Positions 10,096-51,385 of a stretch of 64,000 bases of DNA are shown piece by piece. Numbering within the stretch: the stretch's first letter is position 1; each line of letters starts with the position of its first letter. Under the pieces are notes generated by a model that was not told where the DNA came from, did not search any database, and worked only from the letters and a program-made list of their open reading frames with translations. Location: the IMG/VR virus record IMGVR_UViG_3300045988_134250, one strand, 5' to 3'. This DNA comes from a virus. Taxonomy: Duplodnaviria > Heunggongvirae > Uroviricota > Caudoviricetes. The position numbers were made by a program, and so were the translations under genes.

Positions 10096-11037
10096 TTAAC
10101 TAACAATCCAGTCCATAGCAATAACATCCTCTGGAGCTAAATCAATAGCATGGATTTTCCCGTCACGGATGGTGCGCCAGTGCTTTCGTGATCCACCTTC
10201 GGGCCACACCCATATACCTTCAGGCCAGGAAGAACGACGACACACTGTTGCGTATCCAGTCCTGATCTTCTCTCTGGCGGTATGTAGTGACAGATTATCC
10301 TTTGGGCTTTCAGGCACAGGATGGTGGATTGCCTGAAACATCCCCATCTTTGGATGATACCAGCGTTTATTGCGTGGTTCTGCCTCCGACATCACCTGCT
10401 TAAAGGCTTTCCGGAAGGGGGCAAGGGCCACAATGGAGCGTCGCGCAAGCAAGCCATCGGGGGTCAAAAACTCATGTGTATCGGTGGGAATCCGGTAAGC
10501 GTTGACAAGGTTACGGCATTTGGCTTCAGTCAGGCCACATTTCGCCGCCAGCTGGCGGTAGCCAATGTAGCCTTCCGGCATATTGCCTTTCTTGATTTGC
10601 TCAACGGTTTCAGCGACCCTGGACACTTGTGCCGATACCTCGGCTACCTGGGCATTTACGGCGTTGATCCGGCGTTCATGCTCAAGATGCATTTGCGCCA
10701 TTTCAGCCAGGATTTCGGCTTTTGATTTTAACTGTACCCGGGCATTCTCCAGTTCGCGCCAGCGGTCCACCAGCCGGGCGGTAAATTCGGGAGAGAGCTG
10801 CGCGACGACGACAATACTATCGCGCTTGCCTTGTTCGCCTTCGAAGAAATAGGCTTTTGTGTATTTATTAGGGCTAAGTGATTGATTATTCTCAACTGTA
10901 GCCAATGGCGTATGTTGGATAACTCCTTTAGCAACAAGTCTTTCGATGCTGCGTTTAACATCAGAGTGACGACTTCCCACCAGTTCCGCGATCTCAATAC
11001 TGGTCATTGTCGCTTTTTGAGAGATGGACAGATTCAT
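10096..11037 (-). CDS. Rha-family phage regulatory protein (antirepressor-like) with a C-terminal W-rich small domain
   Basis: N-terminus MTSIEIAELVGSRHSDVKRSIERLVAKG typical of Rha; C-terminus REKIRTGYATVCRRSSWPEGIWVWP...EDVIAMDWIVS shares the motif of ORFs 27497-27937, 35584-36159 and 49844-50044. Confidence 0.75.
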   Translation of the reverse strand: MNLSISQKATMTSIEIAELVGSRHSDVKRSIERLVAKGVIQHTPLATVENNQSLSPNKYTKAYFFEGEQGKRDSIVVVAQLSPEFTARLVDRWRELENARVQLKSKAEILAEMAQMHLEHERRINAVNAQVAEVSAQVSRVAETVEQIKKGNMPEGYIGYRQLAAKCGLTEAKCRNLVNAYRIPTDTHEFLTPDGLLARRSIVALAPFRKAFKQVMSEAEPRNKRWYHPKMGMFQAIHHPVPESPKDNLSLHTAREKIRTGYATVCRRSSWPEGIWVWPEGGSRKHWRTIRDGKIHAIDLAPEDVIAMDWIVS

Positions 11038-11252
11038 CAGTGCACCTCCACGCAGTTCATCGGCAGATTCCAGTAATTGAGGATCTCCATCGCATCAAGA
11101 GTGAAGCGAGCAGCAAAAATGCAGGGTTCTTCGGGAAGGTATGAGCGCGCCTCTGCTTCGGTAGCAGCCATGACGCAGATATACAGGTGTTTTTGGCAGG
11201 AATAGAAACGCCAGATAAATTCAGAATGAGTTGGGGTAGGGATAGTAGCCAT
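11037..11252 (-). CDS. Small protein preceding the Rha gene; paralog of 50748-50972
   Basis: 71 aa; shares SEFIWRFYSCQK / AATEAEARS with the 74 aa ORF upstream of the second Rha gene. Confidence 0.5.
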   Translation of the reverse strand: MATIPTPTHSEFIWRFYSCQKHLYICVMAATEAEARSYLPEEPCIFAARFTLDAMEILNYWNLPMNCVEVH

Positions 11253-12063
11253 ATTGGCAGCCTCCTTTGACTAAGTTAAGGAGCTACCGCGTGAGGTTCC
11301 AATCTCAATGGCGGTAGCACTGACTGGGTTGGAACTACCGGCGTCAAAGGGAACCGGCCTGCCTTTCGGCAGCCCAGCCAGCACTACCATTGATCTCTGA
11401 GCTAAACGCTAAGTATGGCTGTGCGATGGCATGACACAAAAAAAGACGCGTTCGGCGTCTGTGTCGCCTTTGACATTATCCGGGGTTCCAATCCCGGCAC
11501 CCGTTTTTCTAAGGTGCCGTAGAAATATACCCCACGATAATGCCAGGGCGCAACAGTCAGTATTTTATGCTTTGGCGGATTTCTTCCTGACTTGCTTGCA
11601 GGCGTAGGCCATTGCTTTAGCTTTCACTTCATCCAGCTTCCCGGTGATCACTTCTTTTCCGAGAGTGACAAACCAGTCATAGCAACCGCCAGTAATGTTC
11701 TTGATTTGAAAGTTGAGGTAGCGAACAGTCATTTTGACACCCCCGGCGCGAGCAAAGAATGCAGATTATCGCGTGAGTGGTGGAAGACGAGTGATGGGAA
11801 AAGACTGTAGTTGTTCATAGTGTTGTGACTCCTTGCTTTCGGAGCCGCCATCGACTGTTCCACGGTCTGGTGGCGGCGCAATAAAGGCTGGAACACCGTG
11901 AGTCAACGGGGGCTTTTCAGCCACCTATATTGCACCGCCATAGGTATGGCGGAGGCAATAATACGAAAAACTAAACAGTTTGTCTCAAAAAGTTGACCGG
12001 TGTGCCAATCGGTAGTGAATGTACATCGGAGAGTTTTTCAATTCAACTTAAAATGTTAGAAAA

Positions 12064-27496: not shown

Positions 27497-27937
27497 TCAC
27501 TCCACAACAAACCAGTCACAGGCCAGCAGGTCGCCAACTGAAGGCACCCACGGAACAACTACACCTTGTGCATTTTTTAAGGCGAAATAAGCACCATACG
27601 GAACGAGGTCGCCGGGGAAATATCCCTTAATGGCTTCCATTCGTGCCGGGTACTGTCCTTCAGGAACCAGCCAGCAGAATTGGTTTTCGCCGTTCCACCC
27701 GCGTCGAGCAACTTTCTTGCCTTCCTTCAGCCACATCAGCGCGTCTGAAAAGTCGGCTGCTTCAAGGTCGATTTCTTCTTGCTGGGTGGTGATGCCACCA
27801 GCAGAAATAGTTACGCTCCCGGTAAGATTAATCATCACGCCGTTGTCATCCGTAATGATGACCGTGGTTCCATTTTTTTTGTGAGCTTTGTATTTGGGAC
27901 GGAACTTAAAAAGCTCTTTCGTTGCCATGTTATTCAT
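27497..27937 (-). CDS. Small protein with W-rich domain resembling DUF2829 (the family that includes Thoeris anti-defence Tad2)
   Basis: 146 aa; ALMWLKEGKKVARRGWNGENQFCWLVPEG ... DLLACDWFVVE; family assignment from memory, not HMM-verified. Confidence 0.5.
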   Translation of the reverse strand: MNNMATKELFKFRPKYKAHKKNGTTVIITDDNGVMINLTGSVTISAGGITTQQEEIDLEAADFSDALMWLKEGKKVARRGWNGENQFCWLVPEGQYPARMEAIKGYFPGDLVPYGAYFALKNAQGVVVPWVPSVGDLLACDWFVVE

Positions 27938-27951
27938 AGTCTTTTCTCTGC

Positions 27952-28446
27952 TTATAACTTTTCGTACTGAAGCGGTGAACGCTTAATTTCAAAGTGGCCT
28001 TCCGATGTGCTACCAAAGCCACCAGCACCACGCTCCGTTTCGTTGAGTTCCTCAACCTCGACTAGTGAGACTTGTTCAACACGCTCAAAAATTCCTTGCA
28101 TGACAGCCATTCCAGGCTTGAGACAAACGCCTTCCCCGCCGGGATCAGTAATCAGTTTTGCCATGATTTCGCCGCGATAATCGGAGTCGATAATTCCTAC
28201 GCAGTTAGCCAGGCGAGTATGTTTTTTGCAGCCCAATCCTGATCGCGGATAGAGTTTCAGACACCAGCCGGGCGGGATCTCCATAGCCAGTCCGGTATAC
28301 ACCCACCAGCTTGAGGAAATTGCACCATTGCTATCGACGCATGGTTTTATTTCAACAGCCTCAAAATCCATCGCCGCCGATCCGGAGGTGGCATAAGCTG
28401 GAAGTTTTGCTGCCGGATGTAGGCGTTTCACTTTTACGTAAATCAT
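27952..28446 (-). CDS. dut: dUTP diphosphatase
   Basis: 164 aa; RSGLG, GIIDSDYRGE and C-terminal RGAGGFGSTS motifs. Confidence 0.85.
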   Translation of the reverse strand: MIYVKVKRLHPAAKLPAYATSGSAAMDFEAVEIKPCVDSNGAISSSWWVYTGLAMEIPPGWCLKLYPRSGLGCKKHTRLANCVGIIDSDYRGEIMAKLITDPGGEGVCLKPGMAVMQGIFERVEQVSLVEVEELNETERGAGGFGSTSEGHFEIKRSPLQYEKL

Positions 28447-35191: not shown

Positions 35192-35584
35192 CTACCAGCG
35201 AGACAAACGAACAACATGTTTCACTTTTGCGATCCACTGTCCGCGATAACTATTGATTACGGCCTGTGCCAGCTTCAAATTGGCTTCAAAATCAGCCTTA
35301 CTACCATCAGACTCCACCAGCATTCCTCCATCTATTTCTGGTAAACATAGATAATCCTGCTCAACCTGCAGCGGCATTGATGGCTCTCTGAATGGGGTTA
35401 CTTGCTCTGCTTTCCAGCGAAATCTAACCCTTATCCCCCTGGTGGTCATTACTAGATAGCCTGTTATAGTGCTTTTATGGCCCACATCAGTACGCGTGGC
35501 ATTGCATGACTCGATCTTACAGTTAGCGATAGACCACTCCATATTGGTGGCCTGTTGAGTGCTTAATTTGGTAGTCCCGTACAT
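35192..35584 (-). CDS. Hypothetical protein
   Basis: 130 aa ORF. Confidence 0.4.
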   Translation of the reverse strand: MYGTTKLSTQQATNMEWSIANCKIESCNATRTDVGHKSTITGYLVMTTRGIRVRFRWKAEQVTPFREPSMPLQVEQDYLCLPEIDGGMLVESDGSKADFEANLKLAQAVINSYRGQWIAKVKHVVRLSRW

Positions 35585-36159
35585 CAGAAAGCCTCCCAGT
35601 CAGTCGCGATAATATCCACACCAGTTGCAAACCAGTCTGTCTGCGCCTGTAAATCCCCATTCATCATTACCAGGCGAGGCATCACCATCACATCGCACCC
35701 TTCCACAATATCGAATGCCTCTTCCGGCAAGAATTCGAAGAGCTTTTCTTTGCTGCCAATACTGCCACGGAACATCGATATATAGCTCCCTTTGGGCCAT
35801 GATGTCCGCCGGGCATCAAGCCCTTTCATCATCCAGTAAAAAGCCGAGGAAAAAGGGATATTCTTTTTGCCAATGATTACATTATTCGCTTCTGTGTATT
35901 TCAGGAACTTAACTAACCTTACCATTGACTCGGATAACGCAACGTATGGCTCATGATTGATTGCTGACACGCTTACACCGTGCAATCCAACGCTTACCAC
36001 TGTCATATCGCCGCTCTGTGCGGTTTCGATATTGACGCCTTTGCGAACTAATGAGGCGTAAATTTCCTCTCGCTTTTGGGTCCAGCGTTCACGCTTCCCT
36101 ATGAAGTCACTCAAAATGAGATCTTCTTCTGTATATGCGTTATCGTTCGCCATTAACAT
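35584..36159 (-). CDS. Hypothetical protein with C-terminal W-rich DUF2829-like domain
   Basis: 191 aa; FYWMMKGLDARRTSWPKGSYISMF ... DIIATDWEAF. Confidence 0.45.
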   Translation of the reverse strand: MLMANDNAYTEEDLILSDFIGKRERWTQKREEIYASLVRKGVNIETAQSGDMTVVSVGLHGVSVSAINHEPYVALSESMVRLVKFLKYTEANNVIIGKKNIPFSSAFYWMMKGLDARRTSWPKGSYISMFRGSIGSKEKLFEFLPEEAFDIVEGCDVMVMPRLVMMNGDLQAQTDWFATGVDIIATDWEAF

Positions 36160-36602: not shown

Positions 36603-36678
36603 AACCAAATGTGGTGGCCCCTACCGGACTTGAACCGGTGACCGTGCGATTATGAGTCGCCCGCTCTAACCACTGAGC
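36603..36678 (-). tRNA. tRNA-Ile2-type (anticodon CAU; ileX-like)
   Basis: GGCCCTTTAGCTCAGTGGTTAGAGCGGGCGACTCATAATCGC...GGTTCAAGTCCGGTAGGGGCCACCA; near-identical to recalled E. coli ileX; encoded CCA. Confidence 0.8.
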
Positions 36679-37116
36679 TAAAGGGCCAGATTACTGTTAA
36701 TTACGCTTACGCTTTTTGCCAGAACCGCGTAAGGCTTTTGCCGCTTGCTCTACCCCGTATGCAACCACCAGCAGAAACAATAATGTCCACTCCGGGTTTT
36801 TATCGGCAAACGCCCAAAAATCCATCACTTGCAGCCACCTTTTAAGACAAAACGCCATTGCTGTTAGGTTGCGGTGCCGGGCGCCTCCCGGTGACGTTAA
36901 CCAGTTAACAATTAACGCCGGATCACTTATGGATTCTCGTTACGCCAGTAAAAAGACCACCTTTACTGTTTTAACTGTTCCGCGTGCGCTTAGCCGCATT
37001 CACCGCAATGGTAAGAGCATTTGGCTGACTGGGCGGCGATGACGCCTGTACGCATTTGGTGATCCGGTTCTGCTTCCGGCATTCGCTTAATTAGCCAAAT
37101 ACCCTTAATGTTGCAC

Positions 37117-37203
37117 TGGCGGAGAGTAATGGAATCGAACCATCATCGCTTGCGCAATGGGACGGTTTTCAAGACCGCTTGAGCACCATGCTCCCTACTC
37201 TCC
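37117..37203 (-). tRNA. tRNA-Ser (anticodon UGA), type II with long variable arm; atypical D-arm
   Basis: 7-bp acceptor GGAGAGT/ACTCTCC, anticodon stem-loop CGGTCTTGAAAACCG as in E. coli serT, T-arm GATGG-TTCGATT-CCATT, discriminator G, CCA. Confidence 0.6.
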
Positions 37204-37338
37204 CGTTATTGTGGCGACCGGTGCTGATCTCCGGCTTGCGGTTATTTCAGACTCTCACGGGCGTTTAATTGCCCCGCCGAACAGCTCTTTTCCGCAATAG
37301 CTGCAATGTCTTTCGCGCATCAGCCTGCGCATTCACCA

Positions 37339-37428
37339 CAATGTTGAGAACACTGGTTGTCACGCTGCAACGCAACATTTATTCGTAGATTGGGATATGA
37401 CCCCGTTACGCCAGTGTTCTCAACGTTG
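37339..37428 (-). repeat. Long hairpin element (18-bp stem, one mismatch) next to a degenerate tRNA 3'-end remnant
   Basis: caatgttgagaacactgg ... ccagtgttctcaacgttg; followed by gtgccggtta, which resembles the tRNA-Thr 3' end. Confidence 0.5.
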
Positions 37429-37575
37429 TAGTGCCGGTTACGGTTCCGGCCAGACCTCTTCCTCAACGGGGTGTTCTCCATACGGACTACCGTTTATTGG
37501 TCGTTCCTGCGGTTTATGTTGTGAAGCCAGATGCTTATCTTCTGGTTGCTTCAAAGAGCTGCACTTCATCACAAC

Positions 37576-37649
37576 GGTAAGAGCATTTATGGCTCGCATC
37601 GCGGGAAAAAGCCCACGGTAGAGAGTCGAACTCTACAAATGCTCTTACC
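37576..37649 (-). repeat. Long hairpin element (13-bp perfect stem, 48-nt loop) directly 3' of tRNA-Thr
   Basis: ggtaagagcattt ... aaatgctcttacc; the same 13-mer ggtaagagcattt recurs at 37012. Confidence 0.5.
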
Positions 37650-37657
37650 TGTTGTGT

Positions 37658-37733
37658 TGGTGCCGGTTAACGGGATCGAACCGCTGACCATTCGCTTACA
37701 AAGCGACTGCTCTACCAACTGAGCTAAACCGGC
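37658..37733 (-). tRNA. tRNA-Thr (anticodon UGU)
   Basis: GCCGGTTTAGCTCAGTTGGTAGAGCAGTCGCTTTGTAAGCGA...AGCGGTTCGATCCCGTTAACCGGCACCA; folds canonically. Confidence 0.8.
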
Positions 37734-37737
37734 AATT

Positions 37738-37824
37738 TGGTGGGGAGTGATGGAGTCGAACCACCCGAGTCGCAATGACAGTAGATTTACAGTCTACCCC
37801 GCTACCCCTACGGACTAACTCCCC
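37738..37824 (-). tRNA. tRNA-Tyr (anticodon GUA), long variable arm
   Basis: Acceptor GGGGAGT/ACTCCCC, anticodon arm GTAGA-CTGTAAA-TCTAC, T-arm GGTGG-TTCGACT-CCATC, CCA. Confidence 0.65.
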
Positions 37825-37829
37825 TAAAT

Positions 37830-37904
37830 TGGCGATGGTGGGTGGATTCGAACCACCGACCAGTTGGTTAACAGCCAACTGCTCTACCGCTGAGCTACAC
37901 CATC
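37830..37904 (-). tRNA. tRNA-Asn (anticodon GUU)
   Basis: GATGGTGTAGCTCAGCGGTAGAGCAGTTGGCTGTTAACCAACTGG...GGTGGTTCGAATCCACCCACCATCGCCA; acceptor GATGGTG/CACCATC. Confidence 0.75.
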
Positions 37905-40461: not shown

Positions 40462-40776
40462 TTACTGTGTTGCAGCCTGATAAATAAGATACGCGATAAA
40501 TACAGGTACGATGGCCCATTGCAGCAATGAAAGTAGCCTCATTACTGTTATTGGGGTAACTCCATCCACGTATTGTTTCTCTGACATTTTCCCGAACCAA
40601 CTAACCGACAACAGTGCCGAGTTTTCCCCCAATTCCAGCTCTCTGAGAGCTTCACGGATTAACGGCGCTGTCACAGCCTTAACCGGTGTGCTCAACGTGA
40701 TACTCCGCGTCCTCCCCGCATCGTCAGCGAACGCCAGACTCACATAATATTTTTTGCTCAATGTACAAACTCCCAA
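40462..40776 (-). CDS. Small protein with C-terminal TM helix
   Basis: 104 aa; C-terminus VMRLLSLLQWAIVPVFIAYLIY. Confidence 0.4.
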   Translation of the reverse strand: MGVCTLSKKYYVSLAFADDAGRTRSITLSTPVKAVTAPLIREALRELELGENSALLSVSWFGKMSEKQYVDGVTPITVMRLLSLLQWAIVPVFIAYLIYQAATQ

Positions 40777-40958
40777 TCATCAGCGCTTGCACTTTCCGGG
40801 GTTATGTGAACCTTATCGCCAGTAACAATATTGCGAGCTTCAAAACTTCCATTGATACGTTTCGAGATCTCAATACATAGAGCCTGCTGCCATGAGCGAC
40901 GACGAGCGATAGCATTAGTTCCTGCAGGGATAAGTTCTGCCACGTTAAGTAACCGCAA
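40758..40958 (-). CDS. Hypothetical small protein
   Basis: 66 aa ORF coupled between the VRR-NUC and membrane-protein genes. Confidence 0.35.
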   Translation of the reverse strand: MRLLNVAELIPAGTNAIARRRSWQQALCIEISKRINGSFEARNIVTGDKVHITPESASADDWEFVH

Positions 40959-49325: not shown

Positions 49326-49811
49326 ATGGCAAACATTGAACCTCGCTGGCTAATTGAAGCCCGTAAGCACATTGGCTTGACTGAAATAAAAGGCGCTAAA
49401 CACAACCCTGAAATCGTTCAGTTCTGGCGCGACATCAAGCGCGGCGGAATTAAAGACGATGAAACGCCGTGGTGCGCAGCATTTGTCGGTGCAATGCTGG
49501 AACGTGTAGGCATTCGCTCAACAAGATTTGAGTCGGCAAAATCCTATCTGGATTGGGGCGAGAAATTAGATACACCGGCATACGGATGTATCGTTGTATT
49601 TACCCGCGTAGGCGGTGGGCACGTAGGCTTCGTTGTCGGACGCCGCGCCAATGGCGATCTGCTTGTCCTGGGTGGGAACCAGGGGGATGCGGTTAATATT
49701 CGCGCATTCCCAACATCAAGAGTGTCTGGCTATCGCTGGCCTGCTGGCGAACCACGCAATACCGCCCTGTTACCAGTCGGAGACGCAGCAACCTCAACTA
49801 ATGAGGCATGA
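49326..49811 (+). CDS. Putative Cys/His peptidase-like protein (CHAP / TIGR02594-like)
   Basis: 161 aa; PWCAAFV and GGGHVGFVV candidate catalytic Cys/His; family assignment from memory. Confidence 0.4.
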   Translation: MANIEPRWLIEARKHIGLTEIKGAKHNPEIVQFWRDIKRGGIKDDETPWCAAFVGAMLERVGIRSTRFESAKSYLDWGEKLDTPAYGCIVVFTRVGGGHVGFVVGRRANGDLLVLGGNQGDAVNIRAFPTSRVSGYRWPAGEPRNTALLPVGDAATSTNEA

Positions 49812-49835
49812 AAAAAGCCCCGGCCAGGCCGGGGC
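49811..49835 (-). terminator. Rho-independent terminator downstream of the second Rha module
   Basis: gccccgg-ccagg-ccggggc with A-run on the plus strand (U-run on the minus-strand RNA). Confidence 0.55.
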
Positions 49836-49843
49836 ATCACGCT

Positions 49844-50044
49844 TCAAGTCACGATCCAATCATTACCGACTATATCAGCCGTCGATAAATCAACTTCCCG
49901 GATCTGGAGTCCATTAATACAAAACCATCCGGTAGTAGAGTAATTATCAGGCCAGGCCCATACACCAACACTCCATGCTTTACGGCGGCACACTTCAGCC
50001 TGTCCTTCCCTGATTTTTTTTACCGCCTGCATGATGTCCATCAC
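49844..50044 (-). CDS. Stand-alone W-rich small domain protein (DUF2829-like), coupled to Rha
   Basis: 66 aa; AVKKIREGQAEVCRRKAWSVGVWAWP ... ADIVGNDWIVT; homologous to the C-terminal domain fused to Rha at 10096-11037. Confidence 0.5.
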   Translation of the reverse strand: MMDIMQAVKKIREGQAEVCRRKAWSVGVWAWPDNYSTTGWFCINGLQIREVDLSTADIVGNDWIVT

Positions 50045-50748
50045 TCACCTCCCCAACCGATCACCTGGAATTGCCCCATTTTGGGGTGATACCAGCGTTT
50101 TCCTCGGTGTTCAGCCTCCGACATCATCCGGTTAAAAGCATTCATGAAGGGAGATAAGGCCACGATGGAACGACGCGACAATACCCCCTCTGGAGTCAAA
50201 AACTCATGTGTATCGGTGGGAATCCGGTAAGCGTTGACAAGGTTTCGGCATTTGGCTTCAGTCAGGCCGCATTTCGCCGCCAACTGGCGGTAGCCAATGT
50301 AGCCTTCCGGAATATTGCCTTTCTTTATTTGCTCGACGGTTTCAGCGACCTGGCTAACCTTTGACTCAACAGCATGAATCAGCTTTTGCTGCTGAACTGC
50401 ATTCGCAGCCATTGCAGCGATCATCTCTATTTCGGTCAACGGCTGGCGTACTTGTTCTTCCAGTTCGCGCCAGCGGTCCACCAGCCGGGCGGTGAATTCG
50501 GGAGAGAGCTGCGCGACGACAATGATGCTGTCTCGTTTGCCTTGCTCGCCTTCGAAGACGTAAGCCTCAACGCCACGACGCAATCCTAAGTTATTGATTT
50601 TTTCGAAAACAGCCATTGGCGGTTTTCGGATAATGCTTCGAGCAACCATACGCTCAATACTACGTTTAACGTCAGAGTGTTGGCTTCCCACCAGCTCCGC
50701 AATCTCAATGCTGGTCATTGATAGTTTTTCGAGAATGCAGATACCCAT
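50041..50748 (-). CDS. Rha-family phage regulatory protein (second copy, without fused C-terminal domain)
   Basis: 235 aa; MTSIEIAELVGSQHSDVKRSIERMVAR; paralog of 10096-11037. Confidence 0.75.
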   Translation of the reverse strand: MGICILEKLSMTSIEIAELVGSQHSDVKRSIERMVARSIIRKPPMAVFEKINNLGLRRGVEAYVFEGEQGKRDSIIVVAQLSPEFTARLVDRWRELEEQVRQPLTEIEMIAAMAANAVQQQKLIHAVESKVSQVAETVEQIKKGNIPEGYIGYRQLAAKCGLTEAKCRNLVNAYRIPTDTHEFLTPEGVLSRRSIVALSPFMNAFNRMMSEAEHRGKRWYHPKMGQFQVIGWGGE

Positions 50749-50972
50749 CAGTGAGCCTCCGCAATGCCGGGATTGGTAATATTGCGATACCAGGGATTAG
50801 TGTTTGGTTGTGGGGAAGTAGAGAAACGACCAGTAAGAACACCATGCTGATCAGGGATCAGAGAACGGGCTTCTTTTTCGGTTGCGGCAATTGCGAAGTG
50901 ATCGCAGCGTTTTTGCAGGGAGTGGAAACGCCAGATGAATTCTGGACGTGAGCAAGGATTGGCATTAACCAT
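50748..50972 (-). CDS. Small protein preceding Rha (paralog of 11037-11252)
   Basis: 74 aa; PEFIWRFHSLQK / AATEKEARS. Confidence 0.5.
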   Translation of the reverse strand: MVNANPCSRPEFIWRFHSLQKRCDHFAIAATEKEARSLIPDQHGVLTGRFSTSPQPNTNPWYRNITNPGIAEAH

Positions 50973-51385
50973 AGTTACGGCCTCACTAACAGGTTTAACA
51001 ACCTGCCACCCGCTGTCAAACAGGTGGCAGGACGTGACAGGGTTGACAGACTGGCGTTAGTGAAACCAGCAGGCCGAAGCCTCCCCATCACGCCCCACCA
51101 TAATTCGGGCGTAACGCGGTTTACGGACACAAAAATACCGCAATATCGGAAATCTGCGGTTGTCCGCACTAACATTCAGGCTGTCAAACCCGGTCGCAGA
51201 ATTTGCTACGACGGCATGAATATAAGCCTGAAAACATGGAAGATCAACTAAAAATTTCAGCAATGGATGACTTCAGTCGATGATGCAGATCATACATTCC
51301 GTTTTAGAAACAGCAAATTAATTTTCTAACATAAATAATCGGCCGAGCATTTTCCGATCATTGGGATGTTTTGTAGACACACAGG

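Follow-up and report, generated by a model that had tools for sequence, protein, structure and literature searches.

The window analysed here is the whole 64,000-nucleotide stretch taken from IMG/VR virus record IMGVR_UViG_3300045988_134250 (Caudoviricetes). Its nucleotide sequence shares 95-98% identity with that of Escherichia phage D6 (NC_050154), a P1-like phage whose prophage is a circular plasmid, that is, a phage-plasmid. A sequence-only reading of this window had proposed that one small domain recurs in four open reading frames (ORFs) and that it resembles DUF2829, the family of the Thoeris anti-defence protein Tad2. All four ORFs are present on the minus strand, with the coordinates and sequences that had been quoted: ORF1 (27497-27937), ORF2 (35584-36159), ORF3 (49844-50044) and a long Rha protein (10096-11037), the C-terminal domain of which is here termed D4. 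Their counterparts in D6 are orf114, orf6, orf17 and orf82, respectively. The four regions, together with a probable fifth (ORF5, 40758-40958), belong to the Tad2-like (DUF2829) fold family, in which they occupy three grades, and the copies are not equivalent. The corresponding Pfam entry, PF11195 ("Thoeris anti-defense 2-like domain", formerly DUF2829), has 73 profile positions and a gathering score of 25. The similarity of the four regions is far beyond chance, and its support is independent of the motif by which it had been noticed: hidden Markov models (HMMs), BLASTP and a structure model of ORF3 bear out a common domain. The proposed family proved right for all four regions, with PF11195 hits, PDB matches and the ORF3 model pointing to DUF2829/Tad2 and to a shared fold. 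The count of four, each of them real, is an undercount given the probable fifth copy; a profile search of the rest of D6 returned none beyond these five. In an alignment with SPO1 Tad2, ModTad2 and HgmTad2, residues R22, W25 and D79 and the D84-W85 pair are invariant across every copy. The ligand contacts known from solved Tad2 structures were mapped onto this alignment, and SPO1 numbering is used for them.

ORF1 (27497..27937, minus strand; 146 amino acids) carries its Tad2-like domain in residues 58-146 (about 27500-27766), behind a 57-residue N-terminal extension. It scores 81.6 bits against PF11195 over nearly the full profile, above the gathering score, and is an ordinary DUF2829 member already annotated as such in RefSeq (D6 orf114). 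Over its last 89 residues it matches ModTad2 from end to end (8V3E, 9EIB; E about 3e-21, about 50% identity), and more weakly with the PDB sequences of HgmTad2/AcrIIA7, SPO1 Tad2 and SptTad2; the identity to 8V3E would assign it the Tad2 fold. In SPO1 Tad2, glycocyclic ADP-ribose (gcADPR) is contacted principally by W25, N26, W73 and D79, and also by S76 and T78, and in HgmTad2 mutation of W21/N22 or of S90/T92/D93 abolishes gcADPR binding. ORF1 keeps W25, N26, G27, W73, S76 and D79, the replacement of T78 by glycine being the sole change, and it retains the positions whose mutation kills binding in HgmTad2. Tad2 sponges are homotetramers, built as dimers of V-shaped dimers with pockets between protomers, in which helix alpha1 mediates tetramer formation. 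ModTad2 and a homolog from enterobacteria block type II Thoeris through their binding of histidine-ADP-ribose (His-ADPR), and MoTad2 additionally binds the cyclic mononucleotides cUMP and cCMP. Taken as a group, homologs of Tad2 act against CBASS, Pycsar and Thoeris of three types. By analogy, ORF1 would be a canonical sponge of the ModTad2 clade, most likely a homotetramer. It would sequester ADP-ribose-type signals (His-ADPR or gcADPR) produced by domains of the Toll/interleukin-1 receptor (TIR) type, and possibly cyclic mononucleotides, so that Thoeris-type effectors stay off. We regard such an activity, like that of ModTad2 and TmoTad2, as likely for ORF1.

The relatives of ORF1 vary in what precedes or follows the domain. 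Residues 1-20 of ORF1 correspond to residues 1-20 of P0010, and residues 21-146 to residues 100-225 (P and L numbers denote homologous proteins and loci, respectively), a pattern that points to ORF1 being an in-frame internal-deletion form, with about 79 amino acids gone, of a 225-residue protein. This longer protein is common on plasmids of roughly 90 kb. Other relatives include a dUTPase-DUF2829 fusion from Escherichia coli (P0037, 241 amino acids), proteins with a C-terminal crAss001_48 domain (PF21825) and forms of 216-233 amino acids, and the ORF1 locus has the look of a domain-shuffling hotspot. A domain of the ORF1 type was found in 205 phage records, with near-identical copies in the P1-like phages SJ46, RCS47 and Ro157c2YLVW. 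The upstream neighbour of ORF1 in the window is a dUTPase gene, and the locus as a whole covers 27497-28446 on the minus strand.

ORF2 (35584..36159, minus strand; 191 amino acids; D6 orf6) has its Tad2-like domain in residues 103-190 (about 35590-35853), C-terminal to a separate N-terminal domain. It scores 39.3 bits against PF11195 over profile positions 3-72, which is also above the gathering score. Its pocket keeps W25, W73 and D79 and has WP-KG in place of WNG, with proline for N26 and without G27, and is therefore not the canonical gcADPR pocket. ORF2 would be a two-domain protein whose Tad2-like part has a variant pocket. For residues 93-191, the model has a predicted local distance difference test (pLDDT) score of only about 30-40, from a shallow alignment. 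As the Tad2-like half is poorly modelled, the family membership of ORF2 rests on the HMM match. The N-terminal domain (residues 7-92) was modelled with a pLDDT of about 80-93 as an alpha-beta3-alpha (alpha-alpha-beta3-alpha) fold, for which only weak matches were found, to double-stranded RNA-binding-like domains (E about 0.03-0.1) and to the Bacillus phage protein 1R7L; a PDB sequence search with ORF2 returned nothing relevant. The stop codon of ORF2 overlaps the start of a 130-residue ORF (35192-35584, minus strand; D6 orf5).

Two other functional labels occur among the relatives of ORF1 and ORF2, and it is very improbable that DUF2829 proteins of this element act in either capacity. The first is that of a toxin, taken from P0137, a protein 55% identical to ORF2 that NCBI names "MW1434 family type I TA system toxin", in which TA stands for toxin-antitoxin. 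This label was rejected, since a search of the five proteins against NCBIfam gave no match to a toxin model or to any other. The second is that of an anti-CRISPR protein, suggested by the matches of ORF1 to AcrIIA7/HgmTad2 chains (including 9kzr and 8kbi, with E about 1e-10 to 5e-12). E. coli and Salmonella are not known to possess type II-A CRISPR-Cas9, which counts against such a role. Li et al. could not reproduce the inhibition of Cas9 by HgmTad2/AcrIIA7 or its homologs, and the AcrIIA7-like function was rejected on this ground.

ORF3 (49844..50044, minus strand) and D4 (residues 249-313 of the long Rha, about 10099-10293, minus strand) are outliers by sequence rules. Of two possible start codons, the GTG at 50044 and the ATG at 50041, ORF3 more likely uses the latter, which shares bases with the TGA upstream of it (TGATG); this gives a protein of 65 amino acids (49847-50041). 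ORF3 and D4 are 40% identical (BLASTP E = 2e-20), and D4 matches phrog_7385 over residues 252-312 of the long Rha. Against PF11195, ORF3 reaches 15.1 bits (E = 0.034), and the isolated Rha C-terminus has no Pfam match even at E up to 10. The PF11195 search that the sequence-only reading had recommended thus succeeds for ORF1 and ORF2 and leaves the other two regions below the gathering score. Pairwise BLAST of ORF3 and D4 against ORF1 and ORF2 is not significant, and a plain PDB sequence search with ORF3 returned nothing relevant. One explanation of these sub-threshold or absent scores is that the likeness of ORF3, D4 and ORF5 to Tad2 is convergent or due to chance (RRxxW ... DW), with ORF1 and ORF2 as the only true members.

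The predicted structure of ORF3 argues against chance. The AlphaFold2 model has a pLDDT of 91.2 and a predicted template modelling (pTM) score of 0.75, and comprises a helix, four strands, a short helix and a final strand (H3-11, E18-20, E28-31, E39-43, E46-50, H54-58, E62-64). In a Foldseek search of the PDB, its top 16 matches are all Tad2 (ModTad2 and SPO1 Tad2), with template modelling (TM) scores of 0.73-0.77, and the rest fall below 0.4; among the viral structures of BFVD, its best matches are DUF2829 proteins, including stand-alone forms of 60-71 amino acids. On this model, ORF3 is predicted to have the Tad2 fold seen in 8SME and 8V3E, and D4 would share it through its 40% identity to ORF3. 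Structure prediction, which had been proposed as a check on the common fold, was accordingly informative for ORF3, whose model resembles Tad2 only, and of little use for the Tad2-like half of ORF2.

Profile searches also connect the minimal modules with the family. A word-indexed homolog search with ORF3 gave three near-identical proteins only, so an exhaustive HMMER search was used instead for the profile of ORF3 and D4. Among 1.84 billion representative proteins it found eight, including P0005 (E = 3e-10) and P0008 (E = 3.7e-4), which themselves score 23.9 and 37.4 bits against PF11195 and thereby provide a transitive HMM link to Tad2. The frameshifted ORF3 variant P0003 was left out of the alignments, and P0009, a PKD-repeat protein of 1816 amino acids, was rejected as a repeat-driven false match. 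When the ORF3/D4 profile was compared with the alignment of the ORF1 clade by hhalign, the two aligned end to end with the motifs in register (P = 0.002); the probability of 14% given to this match is a point in favour of chance. On the strength of the ORF3 model, the HMM link and the register of the motifs, chance motif similarity was rejected, and we consider it extremely unlikely as an explanation for the set. We place ORF3, D4 and ORF5 within the fold superfamily, as divergent members that do not reach the Pfam threshold.

The minimal modules have lost part of the known ligand-binding apparatus. ORF3 and D4 keep W25 and D79, with N26 replaced by serine or proline and W73 by valine or isoleucine; the position of W73 is aromatic in the relatives P0005, P0006 and P0008. 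They lack the entire beta2-beta3 insertion of roughly 30 residues, and their pocket is not the canonical gcADPR one. In SPO1 Tad2 the insertion contributes helix alpha2 to the V-shaped dimer; in HgmTad2 the beta2-beta5 insertion is where cyclic dinucleotides bind. ORF3 and D4 are minimal Tad2 folds with half a canonical pocket. The loss of pocket residues lowers the claim that ORF2, ORF3 and D4 are gcADPR sponges, not the claim that they bind a ligand. The proposal that a ligand-binding module is reused for anti-defence is consequently well grounded for ORF1 alone, which keeps the main pocket. It is weaker for ORF2, and no more than a possibility for ORF3 and the Rha C-terminus, which have lost N26, W73 and the insertion.

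ORF5 (40758..40958, minus strand; 66 amino acids; D6 orf11, phrog_7206) was found by scanning the six frames of the window with our own profiles (hmmsearch E = 0.018-0.036). Its sequence runs MRLLNVAELIPAGTNAIARRRSW...ITPESASADDWEFVH, and its score exceeds that of 2000 out of 2000 shuffles. A profile of the ORF5 family, built from diverged plasmid homologs (loci L005-L009, 38-79% identity), aligns end to end with the ORF3/D4 family in hhalign (P = 2e-5, probability 74-77%), and in a search with an independent ORF5 profile the highest-ranking matches other than ORF5 itself are P0005, the Rha C-terminus and ORF2. ORF5 itself has no match on Pfam, and one of the six family members reaches PF11195, at E = 0.11. 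Taken together, these results make ORF5 a probable minimal Tad2-like protein, the most divergent of the five. For ORF5 alone, a chance or convergent likeness is unlikely but carries appreciable weight. The gene sits between pmgM (VRR-NUC) and pmgR, and adjoins the anti-restriction genes darB/ulx.

ORF3 and D4 are both associated with an anti-repressor gene. The long Rha (10096..11037, minus strand; 313 amino acids) is collinear over its full length with the short Rha (50041..50748, minus strand; 235 amino acids; D6 orf18) followed by ORF3, with 59% identity (E = 7e-135), and the comparison indicates a single gene pair that occurs here once fused and once split. Both Rha genes are of the Rha/Roi type, score 32.7 bits (long) and 30.6 bits (short) against PF09669 (Phage_pRha, gathering score 29.9) and match phrog_63, "anti-repressor Ant" (E = 1e-46 for the short Rha). 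On the minus strand, cassette 1 reads: isrK-like leader RNA (11439-11517; RF01394, 61.3 bits), C4 antisense RNA (11307-11394; Rfam RF01695, 77.1 bits), icd-like leader ORF of 71 amino acids (11037..11252) and Rha fusion. Cassette 2, also on the minus strand, reads: c4-a1b1 target element (51173-51225; RF03163, 55.2 bits), C4 antisense RNA (51020-51105; RF01695, 68.8 bits), icd-like leader ORF of 74 amino acids (50748..50972), short Rha, ORF3 and an intrinsic terminator (49817..49835). The isrK-like element of cassette 1 thus takes the place, upstream of C4, of the c4-a1b1 element of cassette 2. The C4 and c4-a1b1 matches are above their gathering scores (45 for RF01695), and both icd-like ORFs, taken from the ORF list, correspond to an "Icd-like protein" in the D6 annotation. 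The terminator has a stem of 8 G-C pairs followed by TTTTTT and lies 9 nucleotides past the ORF3 stop codon. An ORF of 161 amino acids resembling a peptidoglycan hydrolase or tail lysozyme (49326-49811, plus strand) converges on it from the opposite strand, for which reason the hairpin may act as a bidirectional terminator.

Translation and antisense control appear to link the parts of each cassette. Both icd-like ORFs overlap the following Rha start by 1 nucleotide, and the overlap of the ORF3 ATG with the stop codon of the short Rha suggests that translation of ORF3, the last cistron of cassette 2, is coupled to that of the Rha gene. Both cassettes have, a short way upstream of the icd ATG, sites of 7-9 nucleotides complementary to the C4 loops (a2/b2). 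The loops differ between the cassettes (CTGTCAA/TCACTAAC versus GTTCCAA/CCTTTGAC), implying that one element could hold two immunity specificities. By this anatomy, the two pairs of Rha and module form the distal ends of complete P1-type immI cassettes. In P1, c4 RNA represses production of Ant, an anti-repressor that antagonises the C1 repressor and works as a two-subunit complex (PMC8546580), and a second c4-icd region in D6-like plasmids was noted earlier (PMC6799933). A Tad2-fold module at the end of such cassettes has not been described previously; in the literature searched, we found no paper that links Tad2 with anti-repressors or with phage-plasmids.

Related loci indicate which part of the cassette the module depends on. 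The nearest relatives of the minimal module outside D6, P0005 and P0006, are encoded on contigs of 88-90 kb with a D6-like gene order, which carry capsid-proximal genes, upfB/upfC-like genes and StbA partition genes. At these loci (L010, 3752-4291; L011, 3746-4207), c4-a1b1 and C4 are followed directly by the minimal gene, without icd and without Rha, and the cassette is inserted between the capsid-proximal and the upfB/upfC-like genes. A site of 7-11 nucleotides complementary to the C4 loop (b2) lies immediately upstream of the ATG of the minimal gene, at the ribosome-binding site. The N-terminal leader of P0005 aligns with the linker of the D6 Rha fusion, which suggests that the C4-only form descended from the fusion by deletion. 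Among the IMG/VR relatives, the ORF3 locus is split in 16/16, and the D4-type locus usually encodes the full fusion of 308-313 amino acids. In the D6-like loci L043-L047, the Rha part is interrupted, and an ORF of roughly 120 amino acids (starting MVCLRDAPLW) keeps the intact module open (match 2501-2695); conversely, P0003 and the plasmid match H53 are frameshifted ORF3 variants. C4 is found about 1 kb upstream in 17/17 D4-type loci with enough flank, all of which are D6-like and hence not independent. The C4-only loci, the loci with a broken Rha and the constant presence of C4 therefore point to the C4 cassette, and not to Rha, as the element with which the minimal module is consistently associated. 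The module can persist without an intact Rha.

These arrangements bear on a different function, in which the minimal module is a working part of the anti-repressor: an oligomerisation or protein-binding element that, fused or as a subunit, assembles Rha or contacts C1. Where Rha is absent, as in L010 and L011, the module itself would then be the effector of the cassette. Fused and split forms of one pair in one genome usually suggest joint working and favour such a role. It also agrees with the constant location in a C4/immI cassette (the 17/17 D4-type loci with enough flank, and L010 and L011), with the loss of the insertion and half of the canonical ligand contacts, with a fold that is intrinsically oligomerising (a tetramer via helix alpha1) and with the two subunits of P1 Ant. 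Nevertheless, the ligand-contacting W25 and D79 are invariant across the minimal family, the module occurs alone under C4 with no Rha gene and is kept where Rha is broken, and ORF5 is similar and lies outside the immI context. Moreover, a protein-protein role of any DUF2829 protein was not found in the Tad2 literature examined. On balance, we hold a role as part of the anti-repressor to be unlikely.

The rate at which the modules evolve can be read in more than one way. The ratio of nonsynonymous to synonymous substitutions (dN/dS) is 0.07-0.10 for the D4 domain at dS about 0.5, which indicates purifying selection, 0.16-0.46 for ORF5, and 0.35-0.77 for ORF3, the last on very few differences. 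When L010 is compared with L011, identity is 38% for the minimal gene and 54-89% for the genes around it; the minimal gene is the fastest-diverging of the neighbourhood, with its motifs fixed. Within the window, the identity between ORF3 and D4 is 40% as against 59% for the whole alignment of Rha plus ORF3. By these alignments, the minimal module appears to evolve faster than its surroundings with its signature residues kept. Fast divergence with fixed motifs is typical of arms-race genes; rapid divergence would also suit a determinant of immunity specificity, under the reading of the module as an anti-repressor part.

Based on these observations, we propose that the element carries a graded set of five Tad2-fold modules that bind small ligands, with ORF1 as a sponge and the minimal copies as C4-gated anti-defence binders, a reading of the whole that we favour by a modest degree. 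ORF3, D4 and probably ORF5 would be insertion-less versions of about 65 amino acids. Expression of the minimal modules would be confined to times when C4 does not exert its control, in a fresh infection or upon escape from immunity, and they would be silent in the lysogen; such timing would suit an early anti-defence binder. The fusion to Rha may have arisen incidentally from the translational coupling at TGATG, and would be tolerated because the Tad2 fold can carry other partners at its N-terminus, as the dUTPase-DUF2829, 216-233-residue and crAss001_48 forms among the relatives suggest. For the minimal modules themselves, we advance the C4-gated, ligand-binding anti-defence role only tentatively. 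It is put forward because W25 and D79 are invariant, the module survives without Rha, its evolution resembles that of arms-race genes and the fold tolerates N-terminal partners; the anti-restriction neighbours of ORF5 were also counted in favour of the proposal as a whole. The role of the minimal modules is held at this level because they have lost half of the pocket and some of the dimer interface.

Several observations weigh against this proposal, mostly as regards the minimal copies. The Pfam scores of ORF3, D4 and ORF5 are below threshold or absent. With the insertion, N26 and W73 lost, both the tetramer and the canonical pocket are doubtful in these copies, which also lack helix alpha2 and part of the V-dimer interface. 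Li et al. report that about 99% of Tad2 proteins have a gcADPR site predicted to be functional, which makes the minimal copies atypical. The fused and split states of the Rha pair speak for joint working, and the argument from expression timing is borrowed from P1 biology. The homology, the fold, the make-up of the cassettes, the complementarity of C4 to its targets and the purifying selection are shown by the analysis; the assembly state, the binding of a ligand and its identity, the timing of expression and any effect on defence are the conditional parts of the proposal, and they are weakest for the minimal copies.

A sensor function has also to be weighed. The minimal module would bind a nucleotide of host immunity or stress and switch Rha allosterically, coupling the alarm state of the host to the choice between lysis and lysogeny. 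This would account for a ligand-binding fold fused to a DNA-binding or anti-repressor protein in a switch operon, for core pocket residues that are kept while specificity positions have changed, and for the strong purifying selection on the fused domain. The inference is purely architectural, as signalling by any Tad2-family protein was not found in the Tad2 literature examined; furthermore, the C4-only form of L010/L011 has no regulator to control, the split form requires an additional interaction, and sponge-type binding in the picomolar-nanomolar range is not an obvious basis for reversible sensing. We consider a sensor quite unlikely. An equally low probability is given to the module being a sponge-derived sensor or effector of the immI switch, which either tunes the Rha-type anti-repressor or acts alone under C4.

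Elsewhere in the window, Rfam identifies a cluster of four tRNA genes on the minus strand (36615-36687, 37661-37733, 37741-37824 and 37833-37904; span 36615-37904). The D6 annotation of the corresponding region has three tRNAs (Ser, Thr and Asn).

Tad2 sponges are among the most widespread counter-defences of phages and, to our knowledge, have so far been studied as single stand-alone genes. What is new here is the sub-threshold minimal subfamily, its place (fused, split or alone) in C4-controlled immI cassettes and the presence of five paralogs in one element. Five diverged copies in one element suggest a panel of specificities. The insertion-less form of 65 amino acids, with the core of the pocket only, marks a minimum of the fold and possibly a new ligand. 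Its wiring to C4 would mean that it is either a gene for anti-defence, switched on at infection and kept off in the lysogen, or a part of the anti-repressor switch not described before. In both cases, the understanding of how P1/D6-type elements manage host immunity would be extended, and annotators would gain a rule for spotting Tad2-like genes below threshold. Temperate phage-plasmids like D6 are common in clinical and livestock E. coli and Salmonella. If the sensor function were true, such a phage-plasmid would read the alarm state of its host when choosing between plasmid lysogeny and lytic growth.

Among known systems, ORF1 is most readily compared with ModTad2/MoTad2, from a Myroides odoratus prophage, and its enterobacterial homolog TmoTad2, which it resembles in the length of the insertion and in the main pocket residues. 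It differs from ModTad2 by its 57-residue N-terminal extension, which is the deletion form of a region of roughly 140 residues in its relatives, and by the glycine that replaces T78/S78. With SPO1 Tad2 and HgmTad2 (PDB 8SME-8SMG, 8KBI-8KBM), all five copies have in common the signature of R, W, D and DW and a predicted fold order of alpha1, beta1, beta2, (insertion), beta3, beta4, alpha3, beta5, whereas ORF3, D4 and ORF5 lack the insertion and hence helix alpha2 and the cyclic-dinucleotide pocket. The same insertion-less fold as in ORF3 is exhibited by short DUF2829 phage proteins of 60-71 amino acids (for example, A0A8S5M8A0; A0A1L2CVD1 of Pectobacterium phage CBB; A0A2K9VAK2 of Klebsiella phage KpS110), with TM scores of 0.72-0.81 to the ORF3 model at 14-26% identity; these carry the DUF2829 annotation, in contrast to ORF3 and D4 with their sub-threshold Pfam scores, and they are not known to be associated with immI/C4 or with Rha. 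Finally, the cassettes resemble the immI region of P1/P7 (c4, icd, ant1/ant2) in their C4 RNA, a/b sites, icd-like leader and coupled anti-repressor-type gene. In contrast to P1/P7, the anti-repressors of the window are of the Rha/Roi type (PF09669) and not Ant1/Ant2, and the window has two cassettes with differing C4 loops, each with an extra minimal Tad2-fold module at its end.

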